From Minisyncoccota bacterium (GTDB taxonomy: Bacteria > Patescibacteriota > Minisyncoccia > UBA6257): 60,533 bases of DNA. The notes beneath the pieces are model-generated. The model saw only the letters and a list, made by a program, of their open reading frames with translations. It was not told the DNA's origin and did no database searches. Every line of letters begins with the position of its first letter. Position 1 is the first letter of the stretch. The DNA lies in the NCBI GenBank assembly GCA_041654015.1, contig JBAZEI010000001.1, positions 1-60,533 on the forward strand. The letters are read 5' to 3'. The position numbers were made by a program, and so were the translations under genes. Positions 6,447 to 59,091 of the stretch are shown in pieces.

Positions 6447-6545
6447 TGTCATTCTGAGCGTAGCCTCCGCCTTCGCTAAAGCTACGGTGGACAAGCCCGC
6501 CGTCGCCAGCGTCTGAAGCCGCAGGCTATGGCGGGCAAGGAAGAA
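6447..6545 (+). repeat. GC-rich two-hairpin element ('CGCTAAAGCT' family), copy 1
   Basis: tgtcattctgagcgtagcctccgccttcgctaaagctacggtggacaagcccgccgtcgccagcgtctgaagccgcaggctatggcgggcaagg. Near-identical copy at 45553..45642. Stems are CCGCC/GGTGG and GCCCGCC/GGCGGGC. Confidence 0.85.
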
Positions 6546-6706: not shown

Positions 6707-9700
6707 ATGTCTCCAAGAAAAAAATTTCATAATCATTTAAAAGAGGTTAAAAAAAGGACAGGTGAAATTGTCCCTTTTGAAAAGAAAAAAATAGAAGAAG
6801 CAATTTTCAAGGCCTTAACAGCTACGGATGAAGGCGGAAAAACTTTAGCCCGAGAATTATCAAATAAAGTTATTAAAATTCTTAATAGAAGATTTAAAAA
6901 AGAAGAAATTCCGTCGGTTGAAGAAATACAAGATATTGTTGAAGAAGTTTTAATTTTAGAGAATTTAGTTGAGACCTCAAAGGCCTATATTTTATACCGA
7001 GATCAAAGAAGAAAATTAAGAGAAAGCCAGATCGTTACTGAGGAATCAGTAAGTTTAGTGGATGAATACTTAGGAGTGAATGATTGGCAAGTAAAAGAGA
7101 ACAGCAATATGGCTTTCTCTCTTCAGGGGTTGAATCACTATGTATCTGCTTATGTCGCTAAAAAATATTGGTTAAGAAAAATTTACCCTAAAGAAATAAG
7201 AGAGGCAGTTGAAGCAGGGGATTTTCATATTCATAACTTGGATATTTTAGCCACTTATTGCTGTGGCTGGGATTTATATGATTTGCTTTTGCAGGGTTTT
7301 GGAGGTGTTTTTGGAAAAATTCAGTCAAAACCGCCAAAACATTTTGGTTCTGCTTTAGGGCAGGTAGTTAATTTTTTTTATACCCTTCAGGGCGAAGGCG
7401 CCGGAGCCCAAGCCTTTTCTAATTTTGACACTTTATTAGCCCCTTTTATTCGGTATGATAGTTTAAATTATCAGGACATAAAGCAATCTTTACAGGAGTT
7501 CCTTTTTAATTGTAATGTTCCGACACGGGTCGGCTTTCAATGTATTTCAGAGGATACAGAGATATTAAGCCCAACAGGGTGGAAAAATTATCAAGAAGTA
7601 GAAGAAGGAAATATTATTACAACGTTTAATTTAAAAACAAAAGCTTTAGAAAATAAAAAAGTTAGTTATGTATTTAAAAGAAAATATCATGGAATAATGT
7701 ATCGTTTACGCAATCGGATACAAGATCAGCTTATTTCCCCAAGGCATAAAGTAGTAAGGAGAAAATTTTATAGCAATGAATATGTTTTGGAACCTATAGA
7801 AGAAATAATGAAATTAAAATCTCCTTTTATTGTACCTATTACTGGAGAGAATATAAAATCGGATGTAAAACTAAGTGATGAGCAGATTAAACTAATGGCC
7901 TGGATTATCAGTGAAGGAACAATTGAAAGAAAGTCAAAATATCGTAGTTGCCACAGAGTTTCTATATATCAATCTAAAATTAAAAACAAGAAAAATTATA
8001 AAGAAATAGTTGGTTTATTAGAGCATTTTAAGTTTAAATATTCAGAATATAATACGGCCGCTTTGGGAGATGAAGTTTGCAAATTAAGATTAAACGCTGA
8101 GAGTTCTAAAGTTATTCATAAATGGTTTGGTTCTAAAGAAAATATTCATTTTATTCCGGAAGTTTTATTTAATTTAAGCAAGGAACAATCTAGATTATTT
8201 TTAAAAACTTATTTAAAAGGTGACGGTTTTGAGGAGTCTAAAATATCAATTACAGAATTGGAGCTATTAGAAGGGTTGGAGAGGATTATTGTGAATTCCG
8301 GATACGGATTCACTGTTCTTAAAAGAAAGCCTACTATAGGGAAAAAGGATATTTATGTTTTAAGAATTATCAGACATCAGGAAACCTATATTCAAAAAAT
8401 AGAAAAAGTTAATTACAAAGGAATAATTTGGTCAGTTCATACTCAAAACGAAACGGTTATCGCTCGACGCCGAGGAAAAGTTTTTATTACCGGCAACACT
8501 CCCTTTGAAAATATCACCTTAGATTTGAAAGTACCGGCTCATTTTAAAGATTTGCCGGTAATTATTGGCGGCCAACCGCAGAAAGAAACTTACAAAGATT
8601 TCCAAAAAGAGATGGATATCTTTAACCAGGCCTTATGTGAAATTTATACAGAGGGTGATTCTAGCGGAAGGGTTTTTACTTTTCCAATTCCCACTTACAA
8701 TATTACAAAAGATTTTGATTGGAGTAACCCTAGTTATGATGGTATTTGGAAAATGACTGCAAAGTATGGAATTCCATATTTTTCCAATTTCATTAATTCT
8801 GACTTAAGCCCTGAAGACGCACGAAGTATGTGTTTGGATGCTAAAGAAGAGATTTTGATTAAAGATTTTTCCGGTATAAAGAGACGTTTAATAGGAGATG
8901 TTGTGAAAGAGTATAAGCAGGGAAATTTTGACAGAGAGGGGTGGAGCAAATGTAAAGGGGATAATGATTTAAAGGCACTATCTTTAAATTATGAGACTGG
9001 GAAAGTAGAATGGACAAATGTAAAGAATTTTTTGCGGGTGTTGGATAATCAGATGGTAGAGATCGTATCTGAAGAAGGGAAATCTATTAGAGCTTCTCAG
9101 AAACACCTTGTTCCAGTTTTAACTCAAGGAGGATTGGTTAATAGATTCGCTCAAGATATTAAAGAAGGGGACTATCTTTTAACTTATAGAAAAGGTGATA
9201 TTTTGAATAATAATTACCAAAGGATAGGAGATTTAATCCTTAATGAAGACTTAGCGAAATTTTTAGGCTATTTTACTGCTGACGGCAATTATCTTTTTGA
9301 AAATAGAAAAAATCTAAGAACCTTTGGTTACCCCAGAGGACTACAATTTACTTTTAATGCAAAAACTAAAGCTAATTTAGAGAAGATAAAAGCATTGATT
9401 AAAAATATTTTTTCTCTAAAAACGAAAGAAAAGAAAGACCCACGCTATAATTCTTACTATCTTTACATCTATAATTCTCAATTAGCTAGGAAATTATTTC
9501 AGGCAGGTTTTAAAAAATATGGTTGTTTGCCAGATATTTTGTTCAACTCGCCCCAGGCGGTTATTGAAGCATTTTTAGAGTTTCATTTTAAAGGAGATGG
9601 TTATGCAAAAAGGCAAGAGATTCATATTAATGATCCGAAATTAGCCAGGGATTTAGCAATTTTGTATTCTTTAATAGGAAAATCGGTGACTTACAGAGAA

Positions 9701-10987
9701 AGAAAAAGAAGTCAGGTGCTTTATATTCAACATAACAAATCGCATCTAAGAGCTGATGAGATTTTGAGTAATCCTTTGATTTTTGAAAAAATGCCAGGAT
9801 TTCTAGCAAAATCGACTTATTTGGTACCAGGGTTATATAAATCTCGAATGGTAGGTTGTGATACTTTAGTAAAATATAAAGCAGATACTTTAGAATCCTT
9901 GAAAATTAAGAACAGCGATTATTACATTACTAGAGTGAAACAAGTGAAAAGAAAGTTTTTGAAAAAGCCTCAGTTTTTTTATGATTTGGAATTGGAAAGG
10001 AACCATTTATTTATTCATTCTCTCGGAGCTATTACTCATAATTGTTGCCGGCTTCGCTTGGATAACAGGGAACTTTATAAACGAGGTGGCGGATTATTTG
10101 GAGCCAATCCTTTAACCGGGAGTATCGGGGTGGTAACAATAAATATGCCTCGTTTGGGATATTTATCAAAAACCAAAAAGGAGTTTTTTGAAAGATTAGC
10201 TCAGGAAATGGAATTGGCAAAAGAAAGCTTGGAGATAAAAAGAAAAATTTTAGAAAGTTGGACAGAAAAAGGGCTTTATCCTTATGCGAAACATTATTTG
10301 AGTAATGTTAAAAAGATGAGGGGGACTTATTGGGGAAATCACTTTTCTACTATTGGTTTGATTGGGGTGAATGAGTGTCTCTTAAATTTTTTGGGGATTG
10401 ATATCGGCAATAAAAAAGGCATTGCTTTTGCTTCTGAAATTCTTGATTTTATGCGGGAGAAACTTATTAGTTATCAAGAAAAAACAGGAAATTTATATAA
10501 TTTAGAAGCAACGCCGGCTGAAGGAACTTCTTACCGGCTTGCTCTTATGGACAAGAAAAAATATCCAGATATTATTACTGCCGGCGAAAAAGAACCTTAT
10601 TATACTAATTCCACCCAATTACCAGTGAATTATACAGATGATTTATTTGAGGCCTTAAAGCTTCAAGATGGGCTTCAAAAAAAATATACAGGTGGCACGG
10701 TGATTCATGCTTTTTTGGGAGAAACAATCTCCGATTCAGAAGCAGTTAAATCCTTGATTAAACTTGTTTTTGAAAAATTCCACCTGCCTTATTTCACTTT
10801 AACGCCGACTTTTTCTGTTTGTCCGACCCATGGTTATCTAACCGGGGAACATTTTATTTGTCCTAAATGCACTATTGAACAGCCTTGCGAGGTTTATTCT
10901 CGAATTGTCGGTTACTTGAGACCAGTTCAGCAGTGGCATCGGGGAAAACAAGAGGAATTTCGTCAGAGAAAAACCTTCAAAATTTGA
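6707..10987 (+). CDS. nrdD: Anaerobic (class III) ribonucleoside-triphosphate reductase interrupted by two inteins
   Basis: ATP-cone N-terminus, RSM/CCRLRLD active-site block, C-terminal Zn ribbon CPTHG..CPKC and glycyl-radical motif YSRIVGYLRPV. 1426 aa in total, 703 aa after removing the two inteins. Confidence 0.9.
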   Translation: MSPRKKFHNHLKEVKKRTGEIVPFEKKKIEEAIFKALTATDEGGKTLARELSNKVIKILNRRFKKEEIPSVEEIQDIVEEVLILENLVETSKAYILYRDQRRKLRESQIVTEESVSLVDEYLGVNDWQVKENSNMAFSLQGLNHYVSAYVAKKYWLRKIYPKEIREAVEAGDFHIHNLDILATYCCGWDLYDLLLQGFGGVFGKIQSKPPKHFGSALGQVVNFFYTLQGEGAGAQAFSNFDTLLAPFIRYDSLNYQDIKQSLQEFLFNCNVPTRVGFQCISEDTEILSPTGWKNYQEVEEGNIITTFNLKTKALENKKVSYVFKRKYHGIMYRLRNRIQDQLISPRHKVVRRKFYSNEYVLEPIEEIMKLKSPFIVPITGENIKSDVKLSDEQIKLMAWIISEGTIERKSKYRSCHRVSIYQSKIKNKKNYKEIVGLLEHFKFKYSEYNTAALGDEVCKLRLNAESSKVIHKWFGSKENIHFIPEVLFNLSKEQSRLFLKTYLKGDGFEESKISITELELLEGLERIIVNSGYGFTVLKRKPTIGKKDIYVLRIIRHQETYIQKIEKVNYKGIIWSVHTQNETVIARRRGKVFITGNTPFENITLDLKVPAHFKDLPVIIGGQPQKETYKDFQKEMDIFNQALCEIYTEGDSSGRVFTFPIPTYNITKDFDWSNPSYDGIWKMTAKYGIPYFSNFINSDLSPEDARSMCLDAKEEILIKDFSGIKRRLIGDVVKEYKQGNFDREGWSKCKGDNDLKALSLNYETGKVEWTNVKNFLRVLDNQMVEIVSEEGKSIRASQKHLVPVLTQGGLVNRFAQDIKEGDYLLTYRKGDILNNNYQRIGDLILNEDLAKFLGYFTADGNYLFENRKNLRTFGYPRGLQFTFNAKTKANLEKIKALIKNIFSLKTKEKKDPRYNSYYLYIYNSQLARKLFQAGFKKYGCLPDILFNSPQAVIEAFLEFHFKGDGYAKRQEIHINDPKLARDLAILYSLIGKSVTYRERKRSQVLYIQHNKSHLRADEILSNPLIFEKMPGFLAKSTYLVPGLYKSRMVGCDTLVKYKADTLESLKIKNSDYYITRVKQVKRKFLKKPQFFYDLELERNHLFIHSLGAITHNCCRLRLDNRELYKRGGGLFGANPLTGSIGVVTINMPRLGYLSKTKKEFFERLAQEMELAKESLEIKRKILESWTEKGLYPYAKHYLSNVKKMRGTYWGNHFSTIGLIGVNECLLNFLGIDIGNKKGIAFASEILDFMREKLISYQEKTGNLYNLEATPAEGTSYRLALMDKKKYPDIITAGEKEPYYTNSTQLPVNYTDDLFEALKLQDGLQKKYTGGTVIHAFLGETISDSEAVKSLIKLVFEKFHLPYFTLTPTFSVCPTHGYLTGEHFICPKCTIEQPCEVYSRIVGYLRPVQQWHRGKQEEFRQRKTFKI
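7541..8497 (+). mobile_element. Intein 1 in NrdD (319 codons) with LAGLIDADG homing-endonuclease domain
   Basis: Starts CISEDTEIL directly after extein ..TRVGFQ. Ends ..VFITGN followed by +1 Thr (TPFENITLD). Internal LAGLIDADG-type motifs LMAWIISEGTI and YLKGDGFEE. Confidence 0.85.
8831..10042 (+). mobile_element. Intein 2 in NrdD (404 codons) with LAGLIDADG homing-endonuclease domain
   Basis: Starts CLDAKEEIL after extein ..DARSM. Ends ..GAITHN followed by +1 Cys of CCRLRLD. Internal motifs LAKFLGYFTADGNY and FHFKGDGYAK. Confidence 0.85.
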
Positions 10988-17903: not shown

Positions 17904-18263
17904 ATGCAACAAATAATAACAGAAAGCTTAATGACGAATTTTTGGCTGCTTGCTTTATTCCTTACTTGGAGCTTAATTTGGAAAGGATTGGCATTGTGGA
18001 AAGCGGCAAGAAATGAACATAGATGGTGGTTTATCGCTTTGTTGATTATAAATACAGCAGGCCTTTTAGAAATAATTTATATTTTCTTTTTTAGTAAAAA
18101 GAAAGAGTTTGTAGAAAAGAAGCCCTCCGCCGCTTCCACCTCCGCTAAAGCTTCGGTGGATAAAAAAGCTATGGAGGATAAGCCCTCCTCTGCTTCCACC
18201 TCCGCTAAAGCTTCGGTGGATAAAAAAGCTATGGAGGACAAGGAAGAAACAATAAAAGAATAG
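17904..18263 (+). CDS. Small membrane protein (DUF5652-like) with a repeat-encoded C-terminal tail
   Basis: Two TM helices (LWKAARNEHRWWFIALLIINTAGLLEIIYIFFF). The tail contains two 20-aa repeats, PS.ASTSAKASVDKKAMEDK. Confidence 0.55.
   Translation: MQQIITESLMTNFWLLALFLTWSLIWKGLALWKAARNEHRWWFIALLIINTAGLLEIIYIFFFSKKKEFVEKKPSAASTSAKASVDKKAMEDKPSSASTSAKASVDKKAMEDKEETIKE
18121..18240 (+). repeat. Tandem 2 x 60-nt in-frame repeat related to the 'CGCTAAAGCT' hairpin family
   Basis: Units 18121..18180 and 18181..18240 differ at 3 positions. Each contains tccacctccgctaaagcttcggtgga...gctatggagga. Confidence 0.9.
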
Positions 18264-19571: not shown

Positions 19572-19578
19572 CAAACAC

Positions 19579-19606
19579 TTGACATTCATTTTAGATTTGC
19601 TATACT
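19579..19606 (+). promoter_or_regulatory. Sigma-70-like promoter TTGACA-16 nt-TATACT
   Basis: ttgacattcattttagatttgctatact. Confidence 0.65.
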
Positions 19607-19612
19607 CTCCTT

Positions 19613-19693
19613 GGTGTTATTTTTAAGCCGCAAGGCCTATAAATAACACCATTGCTGTCGTTTTTGGCTTGCCAAAGGCGGCAGCATTTTTTT
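19613..19693 (+). ncRNA. Candidate ~80-nt small RNA, copy 1
   Basis: Lies downstream of its own promoter. Hairpin 1 is GGUGUUAUUU..GCC-GCAA-GGC..AAAUAACACC (GNRA loop). Hairpin 2 is UGCUGUCG..UUGGC-UUG-GCCAA..CGGCAGCA followed by U7, which looks like an intrinsic terminator. No ORF. Confidence 0.45.
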
Positions 19694-19705
19694 ATATTAA
19701 AACAT

Positions 19706-23996: not shown

Positions 23997-24007
23997 CAAA
24001 CACTTGA

Positions 24008-24143
24008 CCCCCACACCATAACGAGCACTAAGTGCTTTGCGCTAAACCCCCACACCATATAGTCTTTAGATATATAGAAGTTAGTCTAAATTTATTTGGT
24101 GTGCGGGGTAAAATACGAAGTATGTGCTCATTTGGTGTGGGGG
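24008..24143. mobile_element. Non-coding TIR element (CCCCCACACC...GGTGTGGGGG), 4-bp TSD TTGA, inserted in a -35 box
   Basis: TTGA at 24004..24007 and 24144..24147. The uninterrupted paralogous site at 19579 shows the empty target. Contains a second nested copy. Confidence 0.85.
24047..24108. mobile_element. Nested 62-nt TIR element (CCCCCACACC...GGTGTGCGGGG), 4-bp TSD TAAA
   Basis: TAAA at 24043..24046 and 24109..24112. The right TIR has one extra C. Confidence 0.7.
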
Positions 24144-24171
24144 TTGACATTCATTTTAGATTTGCTATACT
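24144..24171 (+). promoter_or_regulatory. Sigma-70-like promoter TTGACA-16 nt-TATACT (regenerated by the TSD)
   Basis: Identical to 19579..19606. Confidence 0.6.
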
Positions 24172-24177
24172 ACTTCT

Positions 24178-24258
24178 GGTGTTATTTCTAAGCCGCAAGG
24201 CCTATAAATAACACCATTGCTGTCGTTTTTGGCTTGCCAAAGGCGGCAGCATTTTTTT
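24178..24258 (+). ncRNA. Candidate ~80-nt small RNA, copy 2
   Basis: Same two hairpins and U-tract as 19613..19693. The differences cluster in the first ~10 nt. Confidence 0.45.
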
Positions 24259-24416
24259 ATTATTAATAATTATTAATGAGGATAATTAATGAGGTCGGAC
24301 CTCGTTAATTATTTTAGAAAAAGTTAATTTATATATTTTCTTATTTTTTCATATATTTTCTTTTTTCAATTGTTTCTGGTATGATATGAACGCGGAAAAT
24401 AAATTGTTTTAACTAA

Positions 24417-31671: not shown

Positions 31672-31730
31672 TAAAGCAACATTTAATCATTTAACAATGA
31701 AGCAATACAACAATGTAATTTGGGGGTTGA

Positions 31731-31834
31731 CCCCCACACCAAACGTTTTTAGCATAAATTTCTATATAAATATAGATGAAACTTAGAAGTAATTGTTGGT
31801 CTACATATCTACAAAGTTCGTTATGGTGTGGGGG
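31731..31834. mobile_element. 104-nt non-coding TIR element (CCCCCACACC...GGTGTGGGGG), 4-bp TSD TTGA, inserted in the tuf promoter -35 box
   Basis: TTGA at 31727..31730 and 31835..31838. Subterminal CCAAACG / CGTTATGG and an internal AACTTAGAA are shared with the element at 57764..57895. Confidence 0.8.
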
Positions 31835-31863
31835 TTGACAATAAATTAATTATGCCTTAATAT
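31835..31863 (+). promoter_or_regulatory. Sigma-70-like promoter TTGACA-17 nt-TAATAT upstream of tuf
   Basis: ttgacaataaattaattatgccttaatat. Confidence 0.55.
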
Positions 31864-45402: not shown

Positions 45403-45770
45403 GGAAGAATCTCTCGTTTTCTTTTGTCATTCTGAGCGGAGCGAAGAATCCCTCGCGAATGCGAGAATCACACTAACAACAAGGAGAACAGTTCTCCTGT
45501 GTTCTATAATAAAATTTACGACGTCGGACGTCCCAAAATTCTTTGTCCTTTTGAGTGTAGCCTTCGCCTTCGCTAAAGCTACGCTGGACAAGCCCGCCTT
45601 CGCCAGCGCCTGAAGCCGCAGGCTATGGCGGGCAAGGAAGAATCTCTCGTTTTCTTCTGTCATTCTGAGCGAAGCGAAGAATCTCTCGCGAATGCGAGGA
45701 TCACATTAATAACAAGGAGAACAGTTCTCCTGTGTTTCATATCCCTCGCGAATGCGAGAAATTCACTTTG
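45403..45770. repeat. Composite array of GC-rich repeat modules (X1 - spacer/Y - X2 - partial X)
   Basis: X1 (45403..45503) and X2 (45636..45736) are ~101-nt near-identical direct repeats: ..tgtcattctgagcgRagcgaagaatc.ctcgcgaatgcgag..aggagaacagttctcctgtgtt. Y (45553..45642) matches 6460..6545. A third ctcgcgaatgcgag lies at 45745..45758. Confidence 0.9.
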
Positions 45771-50591: not shown

Positions 50592-51014
50592 ATGAAAACA
50601 AAACTGGAAATTTATACAGATGGAGGGGCAAGGAATAATCCGGGGCCGGCAGGCATCGGAGTCATTATAGGCGGTAAAGAATATGCTGAATATATAGGCG
50701 AGGCCACCAATAATGTTGCTGAGTATAAAGCGATTATTTTTGCTCTTAAAAAAGCGAAACAGCTTCTGGGAAAGTCAAAATTGAAGGACACAGAGGTGAT
50801 AATTAATGCAGATTCAGAATTAGTGATTAACCAACTTAACGGAAAATTCAAAATTTTAGAAAAAGATTTACAGCCTCTTTTTTTGGAAGTTTGGAATCTA
50901 AAATTTGATTTTCCAAATTTAAAATTTAATTATATTCCGAGGGAAAAGAATCAAAGGGCGGATTATCTAGTTAATTCTGCCATTGAGAAACGGCAAAATA
51001 CATTAAATATCTAA
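50592..51014 (+). CDS. rnhA: Ribonuclease HI family protein
   Basis: IYTDGGARNNPGPAGIG, NNVAEYKA, DSELVINQ, N.RAD. Confidence 0.8.
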   Translation: MKTKLEIYTDGGARNNPGPAGIGVIIGGKEYAEYIGEATNNVAEYKAIIFALKKAKQLLGKSKLKDTEVIINADSELVINQLNGKFKILEKDLQPLFLEVWNLKFDFPNLKFNYIPREKNQRADYLVNSAIEKRQNTLNI

Positions 51015-51054
51015 AAATATCTAAGAATATAATACTTCTTTCCTTATGTATATT

Positions 51055-51090
51055 AAAATCGTCCCCTCCATAGTTGGAGGGGACGATTTT
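51055..51090. terminator. Bidirectional terminator hairpin
   Basis: aaaaTCGTCCCCTCCA-tagt-TGGAGGGGACGAtttt, between convergent rnhA and RNase P RNA. Confidence 0.8.
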
Positions 51091-51102
51091 AATAAATTAA
51101 TT

Positions 51103-51762
51103 AACTGGTTAAACCTATAAGCCGAATTCTGTATCCAGCCCTTTTGAATAAATATAACGTTCTTTTACTTACAATATATTAACTTACTAATATAAATAAG
51201 TATTACTTGTTATATTCACTCAAAAGGGCTGGACGGCAGTCATTTATCTAGCCCTAATGTCGCCATCAGGGTCAAGCGGTTACTCTGCCAAAATTACTCG
51301 TAGCGAAGCAAGGTTATAATTTTGAGCATCCGCCATAGCTCAGTAAGCGACGGCGGACCCGCTTTTGCTAAAGCTCCAGCGGGCTCTCAATTTTATAACC
51401 GTTCGCCTAACTCACGGATAAAATTGGAGCACGAACCTTGCACCCAGTAAGGATTTAGCCGTTTCATCGTAGCCTTCGGCGAAGATCCACCATAGCTCGA
51501 AGAGCGAAGGTGGATAACCTTATAACTACGCTCGCCCTCCTTCGCATAAAGCTACGGAGGGCGTCTCGTGCCTTTCAGCACTCGACGTCTCTGTTCGCAC
51601 CTCTACCCATCTCTTTTTGTAAAAAGGGATGGGCGACAGCTGTTAGCTGCTACCTTTTTAACTCTGTTAAATAAAATTTAACAGAGTGGGAGTTCGGACT
51701 TTCCTCCCCGCTCTTTTAATTTAGGTTAAAAGGGCGGGGCGGCTGCCCAGTTCAACCAGCAG
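51103..51762 (-). ncRNA. rnpB: RNase P RNA (bacterial type A core) with large expansion segments, ~660 nt
   Basis: Minus strand carries GGAGGAAAGUCCGAAC (51707..51692), P8-like CAGC-UAAC-AGCUG, GUGCGAACAGAGA, AGAUAAAUGACUGCC and ACAGAAUUCGGCUUAU. P1 pairs CUGGUUGAAC (51759..51750) with GUUUAACCAG (51114..51105). Confidence 0.85.
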
Positions 51763-51905
51763 TTATTATACCTCTTTTTTTTGATTATTTCAAGAATTTT
51801 TAGTAGAATGAAATTGTTGGATTGTTCAGCAATCTTACGCTGGACTCGCCAACTGGCTAGTGAAAGGTCTATTAACTATCGTGAGAGGTTGCGCTTAAAA
51901 TTGAG

Positions 51906-53681
51906 ATGAGAGCGCTTGAGCGCTTTCAAAATATAAAAATGAATTTATTAAATAAGAAATTTTCATCACCAATTGCTATTTTTTCAGGAATACTAATTTT
52001 CTTAATAATAAGTTCATTTTTTTTTATACTCTTTAAAACAAACCAACTTCAGACGGCTAATAAACAAATCATTTCTTCATTAAAAGAAGAAAATTTTGAT
52101 GAAGCAATGAGTTTAATCAATGGGCTTGCTTTAAAAGAGCAAACTCAGAGCAATGATTTGTTGCAGAAATTTTCTTTTTTCCCCCTTCTTAAAGAAGAAA
52201 TTCAATTGAGCCAACATTTGATAGCTATTAAAGAAAATTTAGAAAAAATTAATAATGGATTTCTTTTTTTAGCGATGATTCAGCAAAGAGAAGACCCATT
52301 ATCTCCTTTAAATAATTTAAAAAATGATTTGAAGTATTTTGAAAAATATAATTTTTCTTGGTATGAAAATAAAAATTATCAATTGGAAAATTGGCTGTCT
52401 TTTTTTGGAGAAAAAGAAGAAAAAAATTATCTTGTTTTATTTCAAGACCCTGATATTCCAAGGCCAACAGGGGGTTTTATAGGCGCTTACGCTTTTTTGA
52501 CGTTTGATAAAGGAAAAATTACTTTTTTGGGAAACAATATTTTTTCTTTGGAAGAAGTGTTTTTAGATAAAATTATACCGCCTCTGCCGCTTCAGGATAT
52601 CAGCGATCGCTGGCTTTTTCATGATGCTAATTGGTTTTTTGATTATCCCTCCAGCGCCCAAAAAATTATGTCTTTCTACTCAAAGACAGGCAAAAAACCT
52701 GTTTTGGATGGTATTATTATTGCTAATATCAATGTAATGGAATCTGTTTTAGATATAATTGGCCCCCTAAAAATTAAAGATTATAATTTAACCATAGACC
52801 AAAACAATTTTGTTTCTTTCTATAAGAGTCAGGTTCAGGAATCAGCCAAACCAGCCCCTTTGCGTAAAGAAAAGGACTCTTTGCCGTTATTTTTTAAAGA
52901 ACTTCAGAAGGAAATGAAAGAATGTCCATTAGAGGTATTGGCTAATATTCCAGAGATTTTTGTTAGAAATTTTGAAAAAAAGGATTTACAGATTTATTTA
53001 GCAGATGATAATTTGGAATATTTCTTTGACTCCTTTGATTGGACGGGAAAAATTAAAGAAAGTAAAGATGATTATTTGGGAGTGGTTTTTAACCTTTTGA
53101 GAGATGATTTTACTGAAGACACGCGGGAAAAGAAAATTGAATTGAATACTGAATTTACTGCCAATGGTGAGATAATAAATCATTTGATTATCAGCGCCCC
53201 AAATTTTTCTTCAAAAGAGAAACAAACAGAGAACTATTTAAAAATTTATCTTCCGAGGGGGATAATTATAAAAGAAGCAGAAGGAAGTTTTCTTAAAAAT
53301 AATAATAACTCCTCTAAATTTGAAAATTTTTATAATAAGCTGGGCTACCAAAAAGATGGAGAATTGCTTTTGATAGAAAAAAACACAATTCGGGATGAAA
53401 AAAACAGGATTGAAATATACGAAGAGGGAGGAAAAACAGTTATTGGTTGTTGGGTTCAGCTATCTGTCAAGCCCTTTAGTTTAGTTTATAAATTGCCCGG
53501 CAGCTGGAACCAATTTTCTGATTGGGAATTAATTGTTCAAAAACAAAGTGGCCAAAAAATAAAGATTTCTTTTGAATTGATTATGCCCAAAGATATAAAG
53601 ATAACCCCTTCGCTTTTTCCTTTTAATCAATTTATTCCTTTGGAAAACGATTTAATCTTAAATTTTAAGAGAGAAAATTAG
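51906..53681 (+). CDS. DUF4012 domain membrane-anchored protein
   Basis: N-terminal TM helix. QDPDIPRPTGGFIGAYAFLTFDKGKI matches my recollection of the DUF4012 core. Confidence 0.6.
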   Translation: MRALERFQNIKMNLLNKKFSSPIAIFSGILIFLIISSFFFILFKTNQLQTANKQIISSLKEENFDEAMSLINGLALKEQTQSNDLLQKFSFFPLLKEEIQLSQHLIAIKENLEKINNGFLFLAMIQQREDPLSPLNNLKNDLKYFEKYNFSWYENKNYQLENWLSFFGEKEEKNYLVLFQDPDIPRPTGGFIGAYAFLTFDKGKITFLGNNIFSLEEVFLDKIIPPLPLQDISDRWLFHDANWFFDYPSSAQKIMSFYSKTGKKPVLDGIIIANINVMESVLDIIGPLKIKDYNLTIDQNNFVSFYKSQVQESAKPAPLRKEKDSLPLFFKELQKEMKECPLEVLANIPEIFVRNFEKKDLQIYLADDNLEYFFDSFDWTGKIKESKDDYLGVVFNLLRDDFTEDTREKKIELNTEFTANGEIINHLIISAPNFSSKEKQTENYLKIYLPRGIIIKEAEGSFLKNNNNSSKFENFYNKLGYQKDGELLLIEKNTIRDEKNRIEIYEEGGKTVIGCWVQLSVKPFSLVYKLPGSWNQFSDWELIVQKQSGQKIKISFELIMPKDIKITPSLFPFNQFIPLENDLILNFKREN

Positions 53682-57652: not shown

Positions 57653-57763
57653 AATTAGCGAGATTAGTATAGTGGTAGTATATCACCTTCCCAAGCCCCC
57701 ACACCAAAGAAGGATATCAATTTCGCGGACATCGTATAGTGGCTAGTACGTAACCTTCCCAAG

Positions 57764-57895
57764 TCCCCACACCAAACGAGTATTACTTGCGAGATTAGTA
57801 TAGTGGTAGTATATCACCTTCCCAAGGTGAGGGCGCCGGTTCGATTCCGGTATCTCGCTCAACTTAGAATTTAAAATATCGTTATGGTGTGGGGA
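57764..57895. mobile_element. TIR element E2 (TCCCCACACC...GGTGTGGGGA), TSD CAAG, whose cargo is the intact tRNA-Gly 'C'
   Basis: Arms 57764..57788 and 57860..57895. Shares CCAAACG / CGTTATGG and AACTTAGAA with the tuf-promoter element. Confidence 0.75.
57789..57859 (+). tRNA. tRNA-Gly (anticodon CCC), intact copy 'C'
   Basis: Hand-folded. Acceptor GCGAGAT/ATCTCGC, D arm GTAT-AGTGGTA-GTAT, anticodon arm TCACC-UUCCCAA-GGTGA, 4-nt variable loop, T arm GCCGG-TTCGATT-CCGGT. No encoded CCA. Confidence 0.88.
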
Positions 57896-58002
57896 CAAGG
57901 TTAAAGCGTGGGTTCGATTCCCATTGTCCGCTCAAAATATAAGTAATCCTTCTTATGGTGTGGGGGCAAGGTGAGGGCGCCGGTTCGATTCCGGTATCTC
58001 GC

Positions 58003-59091
58003 TCAGATAATTTTTCCGCCCCCTAAACATTTATCTTTTTGATAAAAAACAGCGAATTGGCCCGGGCAGGGGGCAAAAACCGGTTTTGAAAAAACAATTT
58101 TTAATTTTCTTTTTTCCGGAATTATAATAGCTGATGCAGGTTTTTGCTGGTAGCGAATACTCACTTGGGCTTTAAAAGGTTTTGATAGTTTTTTTCCAGA
58201 AATAAAGTGATGAGGAAAAACAAAGATTTCTTTTTTAAAGAGATCTTTTTTATTTTTACTCACTAAAAGAGCGTTTTTCTTTTTGTCAAAGCCGACAACA
58301 AAATAAGGGCCGCCGGAAAGTTTGATCCCTTTTCTTTGGCCAATGGTAAAAAAATGCAATCCTTGGTGTTGGGATAAAATATTTTTTTGAGTGTCAATTA
58401 TTAAACCTTGTTTTTTACCAATTTTTTGTTCCAAAAAAGGGCAAAGAGACTGGCCGGCAATAAAACAAAAATCCTTACTTTCTTCTATTTTGCTAAAGAA
58501 TTTCAGCCCCTGTTTTTTTGCTATTTGATAAATTTCTTTTTTAGAGTAATCACCGAGAGGAAAAATGATATGTTTGAGCCATTTTTGAGGCAAAAAACAG
58601 AGATTATAAGTTTGATCTTTATTTTTATCTTCGGCTTTTAATAACTCATACTGCTTTGTTTTAGAATTAAATTTCAGTCTTGCATAGTGGCCAGTCGCAA
58701 TATATTCAATCTTATGTTTTTTTGCCCAAGCGATTAATTGTTTAAACTTGAAATTAGGATTGCAAATAACGCAAGGATTGGGGGTTCTTAAATTTTTCCA
58801 TTCGTTAATAAAATACCCAACAACTTGTTTTTTAAAATCTTTTTTCGCGTCCACAATATGATGAGGGATACCTAACTTTTTACAAACCTTAGCTGCTACT
58901 TCTAGAGATTGTTTTTTTACAAGACGGGCATTTGCTTTTGAAAAATTGGTTTTATCCTCCCAAATAGGCAATTCTAAAGAAAGGCCGATCGGCTGCCAGC
59001 CTTCTTGTTTTAATAGTATTAAAGCGGCCGAGGAATCTACTCCTCCGGACATACCAACAACAATTTTTTGGCCCTTAATATTTTTTGACAT
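58003..59091 (-). CDS. mnmA: tRNA-specific 2-thiouridylase MnmA
   Basis: PP-loop VGMSGGVDSS, PNPCVICN, ATGHYAR. Confidence 0.9.
   Translation of the reverse strand: MSKNIKGQKIVVGMSGGVDSSAALILLKQEGWQPIGLSLELPIWEDKTNFSKANARLVKKQSLEVAAKVCKKLGIPHHIVDAKKDFKKQVVGYFINEWKNLRTPNPCVICNPNFKFKQLIAWAKKHKIEYIATGHYARLKFNSKTKQYELLKAEDKNKDQTYNLCFLPQKWLKHIIFPLGDYSKKEIYQIAKKQGLKFFSKIEESKDFCFIAGQSLCPFLEQKIGKKQGLIIDTQKNILSQHQGLHFFTIGQRKGIKLSGGPYFVVGFDKKKNALLVSKNKKDLFKKEIFVFPHHFISGKKLSKPFKAQVSIRYQQKPASAIIIPEKRKLKIVFSKPVFAPCPGQFAVFYQKDKCLGGGKII

Follow-up and report, generated by a model that had tools for sequence, protein, structure and literature searches.

Nested non-autonomous mobile elements in a regenerated −35 box of a Patescibacteria-like genome, and their probable relation to a minimal GIY-YIG element

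The 60,533-nt stretch of contig JBAZEI010000001.1 analyzed here (hereafter the window), from a Minisyncoccota bacterium, contains at positions 24004-24147 two non-autonomous copies belonging to one family of very small DNA elements; one lies inside the other, and the composite splits the −35 hexamer of a promoter. That this feature is a nest of mobile elements with a regenerated −35 box is very nearly certain. Sequence comparison points to a 301-304-bp element encoding a GIY-YIG nuclease as the most likely parent of the family, and the best explanation of the whole, in which the nest, the rebuilt promoter, and a GIY-YIG parent and mobilizer belong together, is given a probability of roughly 60%. 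The elements move, add 4 bp on insertion, prefer TNNA or CNNG targets, take up passengers, and nest in one another, and their ends are common to them and the GIY-YIG minigene.

The insertion is visible in the comparison of two paralogous units, one interrupted and one empty. At the filled site, caaacacTTGA is followed first by a 136-nt insert running from CCCCCACACCATAACGAGCAC to GTGCTCATTTGGTGTGGGGG and then by TTGAcattcatttt, whereas the empty site at 19572-19590 reads caaacacTTGAcattcatttt, the same context without the insert and with TTGA present once rather than twice. The insert itself (CCCCCACACC...GGTGTGGGGG) and the 62-nt copy within it are short, lack an open reading frame (ORF), and are bounded by terminal inverted repeats (TIRs), as expected of MITEs (miniature transposable elements with inverted repeats). 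A sequence-only reading of this DNA had described the 136-nt insert, its TTGA duplication, the empty paralogous copy, and a second copy flanked by TAAA on both sides, and each of these was recovered as described; the right end of the inner copy is degenerate, reading GGTGTGCGGGG with one extra base. The 10-bp TIRs of that reading are real as inverted repeats but extend to about 19-21 bp, comprising a universal core of 11-12 bp and a lineage-specific part. The components are as follows.

24004-24007, plus strand: left target copy TTGA, present once at the empty site (19579-19582)
24008-24143, plus strand: outer 136-nt non-autonomous element, with its left TIR at 24008-24028 (CCCCCACACCATAACGAGCAC) and its right TIR at 24124-24143 (GTGCTCATTTGGTGTGGGGG)
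24043-24046, plus strand: TAAA, left flank of the inner copy
24047-24108, plus strand: inner 62-nt degenerate copy in the loop of the outer hairpin, kept within the composite at two loci found elsewhere (L233 and L153)
24109-24112, plus strand: TAAA, right flank of the inner copy (TAAG in L233)
24144-24171, plus strand: regenerated promoter, with TTGACA at 24144-24149 (its first four bases being the right target copy), a 16-nt spacer containing TG, and TATACT at 24166-24171
24178-24258, plus strand: candidate small RNA, a two-hairpin transcript of about 80 nt ending in an intrinsic terminator (24218-24251)
19579-19695, plus strand: paralogous unit with the empty target, TTGA at 19579-19582 within TTGACA at 19579-19584

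The duplicated TTGA corresponds to the first four bases of the −35 hexamer, and the right copy together with the following CA therefore rebuilds TTGACA at the original 16-nt spacing. Because this distance from the TG-extended −10 box is preserved, the small-RNA promoter should still be active after the insertion. The regeneration of TTGACA at unchanged spacing had also been proposed from the sequence alone, and it holds for both units, which are 95% identical (19579-19695 and 24144-24260) and share a promoter score of 11/12 for TTGACA-16-TATACT with a TG extension, the uninterrupted copy lying at 19579-19606. In each unit the promoter is followed by an RNA of about 80 nt with two hairpins and an intrinsic terminator, all of them conserved, and the fold at 24178-24258 has a minimum free energy of −40.9 kcal/mol (z = −8.0). 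Rfam searches at the gathering threshold over the window and at an E-value threshold on 24140-24290 assigned this RNA to no family, returning two tRNAs and noise only. The two-copy unit of promoter and hairpin RNA is a candidate small RNA gene, and a homologous unit is present in L233. A 136-nt GC-ended hairpin now stands between the promoter and the upstream gene.

The nesting within the −35 box is likewise genuine, but its history probably differs from the two insertions at this site that the sequence-only reading had suggested. The contig of a relative (L233) carries the same outer and inner composite at the orthologous promoter and small-RNA unit, and a composite that is 86% identical occurs in L153, flanked by TTCA/TAAA in an unrelated neighborhood near the 3′ end of a 16S gene. 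Since the composite in L153 occupies a different site, the nest most likely entered the −35 box as a single 136-nt unit rather than through two successive hits there. The nest is older than the L233 and L153 lineages and has occupied at least two sites.

The terminal 10-mer, allowing at most one mismatch, occurs at 10 sites in the window compared with 0.81 expected, a number reached in none of 100 shuffles. Six of these sites lie outside the nest and resolve into three more elements, bringing the window to five copies.

31731-31834, plus strand: third copy, 104 nt, flanked by TTGA at 31727-31730 and 31835-31838
57696-57966, plus strand: 271-nt copy in the anticodon loop of a tRNA-Gly(CCC) gene (halves 57658-57695 and 57967-58005), with CAAG/CAAG flanks
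57764-57895, plus strand: 132-nt copy nested at the same position of a second tRNA-Gly(CCC), with CAAG/CAAG flanks

Further copies with matching duplications were thus sought and found, and the window supplies TTGA, CAAG, and CAAG. The 104-nt copy again splits a TTGACA (31835-31840), here in the fusA-tuf spacer upstream of tuf. The 271-nt copy holds the second tRNA-Gly(CCC), itself in halves (57725-57763 and 57896-57934), and the only intact tRNA-Gly(CCC), at 57789-57860, is carried by the 132-nt copy. The region 57658-58005 is consequently a tRNA-Gly(CCC) within a tRNA-Gly(CCC) within a tRNA-Gly(CCC), the innermost being 100% identical to the joined outermost halves. This tRNA nest is base-for-base equal in two independent assemblies, one from JGI and one from ENA, which argues that the structures are not assembly artefacts. 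A Pfam scan of 40 ORFs recognized housekeeping genes only, in a Patescibacteria-like genome of 34.8% G+C, and together with tblastn it revealed no transposase, integrase, HUH, or GIY-YIG gene in the window, in agreement with the sequence-only view that the elements are ORF-less and that their transposase is not encoded there.

Beyond the window, the pattern CCCCACACCA - gap - TGGTGTGGGG was used in two scans of public contigs, one covering one genome per species and the other JGI metagenomes, each of which yielded at least 120 loci and which together yielded at least 240 (L001-L240). The matches listed from these scans, to which the counts of copies below refer, include 268 paired copies that range from bare palindromes of 26 nt to elements of about 300 nt. 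With five copies in 60 kb and at least 240 loci elsewhere, the family also has the multiple copies of a MITE. The hosts listed are mostly Patescibacteria (Saccharibacteria, and Moran-, Nomura-, Doudna-, Berkel-, Uhr-, Portnoy-, Staskawicz-, and Nealsonbacteria), and other labels of metagenome-assembled genomes are Planctomycetota, Omnitrophota, Margulisiibacteriota, Nitrospinota, and Bdellovibrionales. Only the outer 11-12 bp of the ends are universal (CCCCCACACCA / TGGTGTGGGGG), followed by about seven more complementary bases, and the paired stem has a median length of 19 bp versus 13 bp in shuffled controls, while interiors are mostly unrelated from copy to copy. The universal 11-mer, CCCCCAC-A-CCA, is laid out like the 3′ strand of a tRNA acceptor stem with discriminator base and CCA, and in L259 (560-900) the right end of an element, ...GTGTGGAGG, together with the flank CGTGGCTGAG rebuilds the 5′ end of the interrupted tRNA.

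The 4 nt outward of the ends conform to T..A in about 75% of cases and to C..G in about 20%, and 111 of the 268 copies (~41%) have identical 4-bp flanks of the form TNNA or CNNG. The earlier expectation of additional TIR pairs with consistent flanking 4-mers was therefore borne out, both in other genomes and at the flanks. In a filled and empty pair from two Moranbacteria genomes (L027 and L026), the filled site exceeds the empty one by the element and a net 4 bp, the empty site reading gcgtatTGTAtcac and the filled site gcgtat TTTA[E]TGTA tcac, with E marking the element. The 4-mer gained does not exactly repeat the target. In L103 (3095-3198), a copy lies in frame within a release-factor-2-like gene, the frame of which needs a gain of 104+4 nt, and a 2-bp duplication within TTCAAG was ruled out because this in-frame copy requires +4. 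The ORF of that gene stays open, with 36 additional residues placed directly before the conserved SWGNQIRSY motif.

Insertion into −35 boxes is a general theme of the family. Ends that abut an exact TTGACA make up 13 of 528 distinct ends, compared with 0.58% of TNNA sites outside ORFs (p = 2e-5), and TTGA flanks continue as TTGACA in 14 of 22 cases versus a background of 9% (p = 4e-10). A canonical −10 box, usually TGCTATAAT, lies 16-18 nt away at 10 of these TTGACA sites, and the fusA-tuf spacer that is occupied in the window is also occupied in L007, L034, and L188. The excess of TTGACA may reflect either an attraction to promoters or the survival of those insertions that the duplication mends.

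Complete tRNAs are carried by 22 of the copies listed (Gly-CCC, Ala-CGC, Thr-CGT, Gln-CTG, Pro-CGG, Val-CAC, Asn-GTT, and Arg-TCT, -TCG, -CCG, and -GCG). Wherever their surroundings are readable, these copies lie within the D-, anticodon-, or T-loop of a gene for the tRNA that they carry and share its orientation, and no copy lacking both an ORF and a tRNA was found within a tRNA gene among the matches listed. The interrupted halves decay, through a second insertion in L149 and by degeneration in L065 and L107, and an intact replacement tRNA is always present, an arrangement read as replacement of the host tRNA gene by the copy that the element carries. Because the exclusivity for the same tRNA is too strong for random insertion and selection alone, some homology-assisted targeting to same-tRNA genes is suggested as a hypothesis. 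The architecture of the tRNA nest is also seen for Gly, Thr, Ala, Arg, Gln, and Pro (L041, L042, L002, L049, L087, L142, and L218), and GC-rich insertions of the ctgcctgcc type, similar to other repeats of the window, break decaying tRNA halves in L149, L107, and L155.

Copies within tRNA genes and in frame within a protein gene could alternatively be taken to mean that the hairpins are mainly RNA-level devices, either intron-like or excised by RNase III as intervening sequences or processing stems, and that their spread as DNA is secondary. A long stem would make such insertions removable, and GIY-YIG ORFs and short ORF-less non-intron insertions occur in the rRNA genes of candidate phyla radiation (CPR) bacteria, mostly at stem-loops (PMC11270868). 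This explanation is nonetheless highly improbable, as the nest at 24004-24147 lies upstream of the transcription start, intergenic spacers and −35 boxes hold many of the copies, G-U-compatible mispairs are not in excess on one strand, and the interrupted tRNAs of L149, L065, and L107 decay while their intact replacements persist. RNA-level selection on the stems was dropped for the same lack of strand bias in G-T mispairs.

The sequence-only reading had called for a search for a longer, transposase-encoding copy with the same TIRs, and a longer copy does exist, although its 301-304 bp encode an 85-aa GIY-YIG protein and no classical transposase. Three full-length copies were located among the scanned loci.

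L233, 2680-2983: full-length copy with the 85-aa ORF between its TIRs, flanked by TTGA/TTGA
L234, 1610-1912: full-length copy with the 85-aa ORF between its TIRs, flanked by GTAG/GTAG
L147, 9266-9569: full-length copy with the 85-aa ORF between its TIRs, at the 3′ end of a tRNA-Ala, flanked by TCCA/TCCA

Seven further loci, obtained as the DNA of four homologues, have the same bracket in seven of seven cases, one of them with the variant terminus CCCCCACACTAATTGAGT. The ORF fits the interval between the ends exactly in all 10 full-length copies, six of which were measured at 301-304 bp, and the bracket follows the consensus CCCCCACACCA(T/A)AACGA..TT.GAATT-ATG ... TAA-..TCGTT(C)TGGTGTGGGGG, corresponding to a left end of 28 nt, an ORF of 85 codons, and a right end of 19 nt. 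These copies occupy unrelated sites, with TTGA, GTAG, TCCA, or CGTG repeats beside them. Alongside the full-length elements there are deletion derivatives with the same ends. Remnants of the ORF are preserved in the short copies of L179, L124, L164, L075, and L159, and the window copies starting at 31731, 24008, and 57764 retain 18-32 nt of the parental 5′ end; the left end of the 24008 element matches the 5′ end of full-length GIY-YIG elements without a difference over 18 nt, and the right end of the 31731-31834 copy aligns with that 5′ end through the ATG. The 301-304-bp elements are thus candidate autonomous relatives of the nest, with a putative role in mobilizing it.

The 85-aa ORF matches the Pfam family PF01541 (GIY-YIG, E = 2e-18), and among proteins of solved structure it is closest to BH0048 and EF2693, both of UPF0213, and next closest to Slx1. 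The sequence matches are 1ZG2 (E = 3.5e-8) and 1YWL (E = 1e-3), and a structure model with a pLDDT of 93.6 gives a Foldseek probability of 1.00 for 1ZG2 and for Slx1 entries. At E <= 1e-10 the homologues number 513 proteins, nearly all of 85-86 aa, and the few that have source names are labelled as Patescibacteria lineages. Residues Y5, Y16, G18, R26, H30, N31, and E50 are invariant across 30 homologues, those expected of GIY-YIG catalysis (Y5, Y16, R26, H30, and E50) among them, and N64 is nearly so; from these residues and the model, the nuclease is likely to be active. More distant GIY-YIG paralogues at fetched loci bear other TIRs (CCCCGTTAGAAAC, CCCCTCACTTGGAAAGAAT, and GTAGTGAAAACCCGACT), and CCCCGTTAGAAAC ends also delimit short ORF-less copies with a TTCA duplication, which suggests that enzyme and ends co-vary. 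Such other families of ends accompany GIY-YIG paralogues in L153 (33-166), L223/L137, L147 (9630-9930), and L158 (6740-7010). They include CCCCGTTAGAAG, of which an ORF-less copy with duplicated TTCA also exists; CCCCTCACTTGGAAAGAAT, which lies in the 5′ portion of a tRNA-Ala and has a 7-bp repeat; and GTAGTGAAAACCCGACT.

Alternatively, a DDE transposon, for example one resembling IS1380 or piggyBac, could be the source of the elements as ordinary MITEs, with the GIY-YIG ORF only a frequent passenger or a parasite of these MITEs. The likeness is considerable, in that the CCC...GGG termini, the 4-bp T..A target and its duplication, and the evidence of flank bases traveling with the element, with unlike flanks differing only in their two central bases, all recall piggyBac, of which IS1380 is treated in the literature as the prokaryotic outgroup, and the elements do carry other passengers in the form of tRNAs. 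Unlike in piggyBac and IS1380, the target is TNNA or CNNG rather than TTAA, and no DDE or DDD transposase was found with these ends. In the 1.6 Mb around the 268 listed copies, TIR pairs 500-4500 bp apart enclose only housekeeping genes, and ends 200-4500 bp apart enclose no DDE/DDD or other transposase ORF; nor is one present in the window or among the gene families that recur near the listed copies. Clustering of 2,009 ORFs near the copies returned EF-G/EF-Tu, ribosomal proteins, a release factor, and the CCA-adding enzyme, which were set aside as candidate mobilizing enzymes because they recur through synteny with tRNA clusters and the fusA-tuf spacer. With the exact fit of the GIY-YIG ORF between the ends in 10 of 10 copies, and TIRs that change with the GIY-YIG lineage, a DDE origin appears unlikely.

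The GIY-YIG nuclease is probably the mobilizer, its catalytic role and the geometry of its cuts being inferred. In the proposed mechanism, the inner copy would first have inserted into the loop of the outer copy, after which the composite moved as one. A nuclease acting in trans would recognize the terminal hairpin, or the cruciform junction, formed by the TIRs and would cut at the 4-nt flank, and host ligation or repair would complete excision and insertion, adding the element and 4 bp where the target is TNNA or CNNG, in this case the TTGA of the −35 hexamer. Matching of the terminal bases when 4-nt cohesive ends join could leave unlike flanks that differ only in their two central bases. Slx1-type enzymes are described as cutting branched DNA, and Slx1 itself as cutting branched DNA and junctions.

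Several observations weigh against this mechanism and its links. GIY-YIG enzymes are known as nucleases and not as strand transferases, and the protein of 85 residues has no separate DNA-binding domain. A GIY-YIG gene was not found by tblastn within the 60-kb window, to which that search was confined. Interiors related to the ORF are detectable in only 5 of 267 short copies, a count that also led to abandoning decayed tRNAs or ORFs as the origin of all interiors. Two GIY-YIG genes of Margulisiibacteriota, at L022 2460-2708 and L028 6244-6492, adjoin element ends and do not lie between TIRs; placed just downstream of the right ends, they are reminiscent of a domesticated or stand-alone arrangement. 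The continued activity of the promoter is deduced from sequence only. The flanks, finally, have features that a simple staggered cut does not account for, a strict polarity among them: in the 268 copies listed from L001-L240 and the window, unlike flanks pair TYYA at the left with TRRA at the right 31 times and never the other way round, CTTG|E|TGAA recurs while its three alternative arrangements are absent, and in a tRNA-Ala case both flanks differ from the ancestral 4-mer.

Strict polarity of this kind, together with the recurring CTTG|E|TGAA and the inexact extra 4-mer of L027 compared with L026, is what might be expected if folded single strands were moved by an HUH (Y1) enzyme, as in the PATEs of IS200/IS605 or in REPIN/RAYT systems. 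Such systems combine a Y1 HUH enzyme with subterminal hairpins or a REP containing GTAG, and they leave no target duplication. An element would then insert 3′ of a tetranucleotide and carry a 3′ tetranucleotide of its own, the apparent duplication consisting of target and carried tetramer, and hairpins that span the whole element as well as insertions in the loops of tRNA genes and of other copies would fit. Such an origin is improbable, however, given that no HUH gene was seen, and no HUH family recurs, among the genes near the listed copies, that identical flank pairs number 111 of 268 and the termini are true TIRs, and that mispairs in the stems lack strand bias (G-T 71 vs. 85 on the two strands). 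In the tRNA-Ala case, moreover, the target matches neither of the two flanks, an outcome beyond a single peel-and-paste event.

Compared with known systems, the nest is familiar in kind. Correia elements of Neisseria are short, ORF-less, TIR-bounded repeats with target duplications and many copies, which lie near or in promoters and can be co-transcribed as hairpins. The present elements share their size, lack of ORFs, TIRs, target duplication, copy number, and promoter location with such bacterial promoter MITEs, but they differ in their termini, in a 4-bp TNNA/CNNG duplication rather than TA, in interiors that are unrelated between copies, and in a candidate parent that encodes a GIY-YIG nuclease and not a DDE transposase; the promoter, too, is here regenerated by the duplication and not supplied by the element. 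Rickettsia palindromic elements likewise occur in frame within protein genes and inside RNA genes. As in these and in REPIN/RAYT systems, hairpin-forming repeats have spread in small genomes, whereas the present family stands apart in its target duplications, in termini shared across phyla, in carrying tRNAs as passengers, and in having GIY-YIG as its partner where those systems have HUH or none.

Free-standing GIY-YIG homing endonuclease genes, such as segB in a tRNA cluster of phage T4, resemble the parent element in catalytic domain, selfish lifestyle, and association with tRNAs (PMC2330249). Homing endonucleases have DNA-binding modules and one cognate empty allele and spread by gene conversion, with no TIRs or duplications (PMC1564403), whereas the parent element encodes only the catalytic domain, of 85 aa, between its TIRs and occurs with 4-bp repeats at many unrelated sites; in the 85-aa ORF the C-terminal DNA-binding modules, single cognate allele, and TIR-free setting of a homing endonuclease were not found. 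The best matches in sequence and fold are the minimal GIY-YIG proteins of the UPF0213 and prokaryotic Slx1-like groups (PDB 1ZG2 and 1YWL; Slx1 4XLG and 7CQ2), stand-alone proteins whose role is given as unknown (Dunin-Horkawicz et al., 2006; PMC1564403) and which, unlike the protein studied here, the literature searched does not describe as encoded by a mobile element with TIRs. In CPR rRNA genes, a 2024 survey reported GIY-YIG ORFs within insertions other than introns and, apart from these, many insertions shorter than 200 bp without ORFs; most insertions lay at stem-loops, and TIRs were not recognized there (PMC11270868). These insertions are probably the same elements. A full-text literature search returned no account of these termini, of CPR MITEs like these, of GIY-YIG genes between TIRs, or of same-tRNA nests.

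The window thus holds a genuine nest of a known, MITE-like kind, and there is a substantial chance that its parent is of a new class. As a tentative proposal, rated a little short of an even chance, this class would consist of a unit of about 300 bp, the sole gene of which is a bare 85-residue GIY-YIG (Slx1-like) nuclease; the nuclease would cut the hairpin or cruciform junctions of its own element, which host ligation or repair would move, and derivatives would carry a tRNA, enter the loops of same-tRNA genes, replace the host copy, and become indispensable. If the GIY-YIG link is true, these units would be among the smallest protein-coding mobile elements known and would add a nuclease fold not tied to TIR-bounded bacterial transposition in the literature searched. 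It would also provide a function for the widespread orphan UPF0213/Slx1-like proteins, which form 7,711 clusters at 50% identity (E <= 1e-3, profile-free search), and could account for the unexplained short insertions and GIY-YIG ORFs in CPR rRNA genes (PMC11270868). The family also illustrates three ways in which a streamlined, 35%-GC genome of the Patescibacteria type tolerates mobile DNA: by a rebuilt −35 box, by in-frame insertion in a protein, and by a tRNA insertion that brings a replacement tRNA. Nests of a tRNA in a tRNA in a tRNA offer a testable case of a selfish element turning essential, and an 85-residue hairpin-junction nuclease with a 12-bp recognition core could interest tool developers.

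Elsewhere in the window, about 900 nt at 51014-51906 contain no ORF of at least 80 aa and no Rfam match, and the anaerobic ribonucleotide reductase gene NrdD (6707-10987) contains an intein (Intein_splicing, E = 6e-17). Other repeats at 6447-6545, 45403-45770, and 18120-18239 form three families: a 99-nt GC-rich repeat in two copies that are 93% identical, a 106-nt repeat with copies 233 nt apart, and tandem 60-mers within a DUF5652 ORF.

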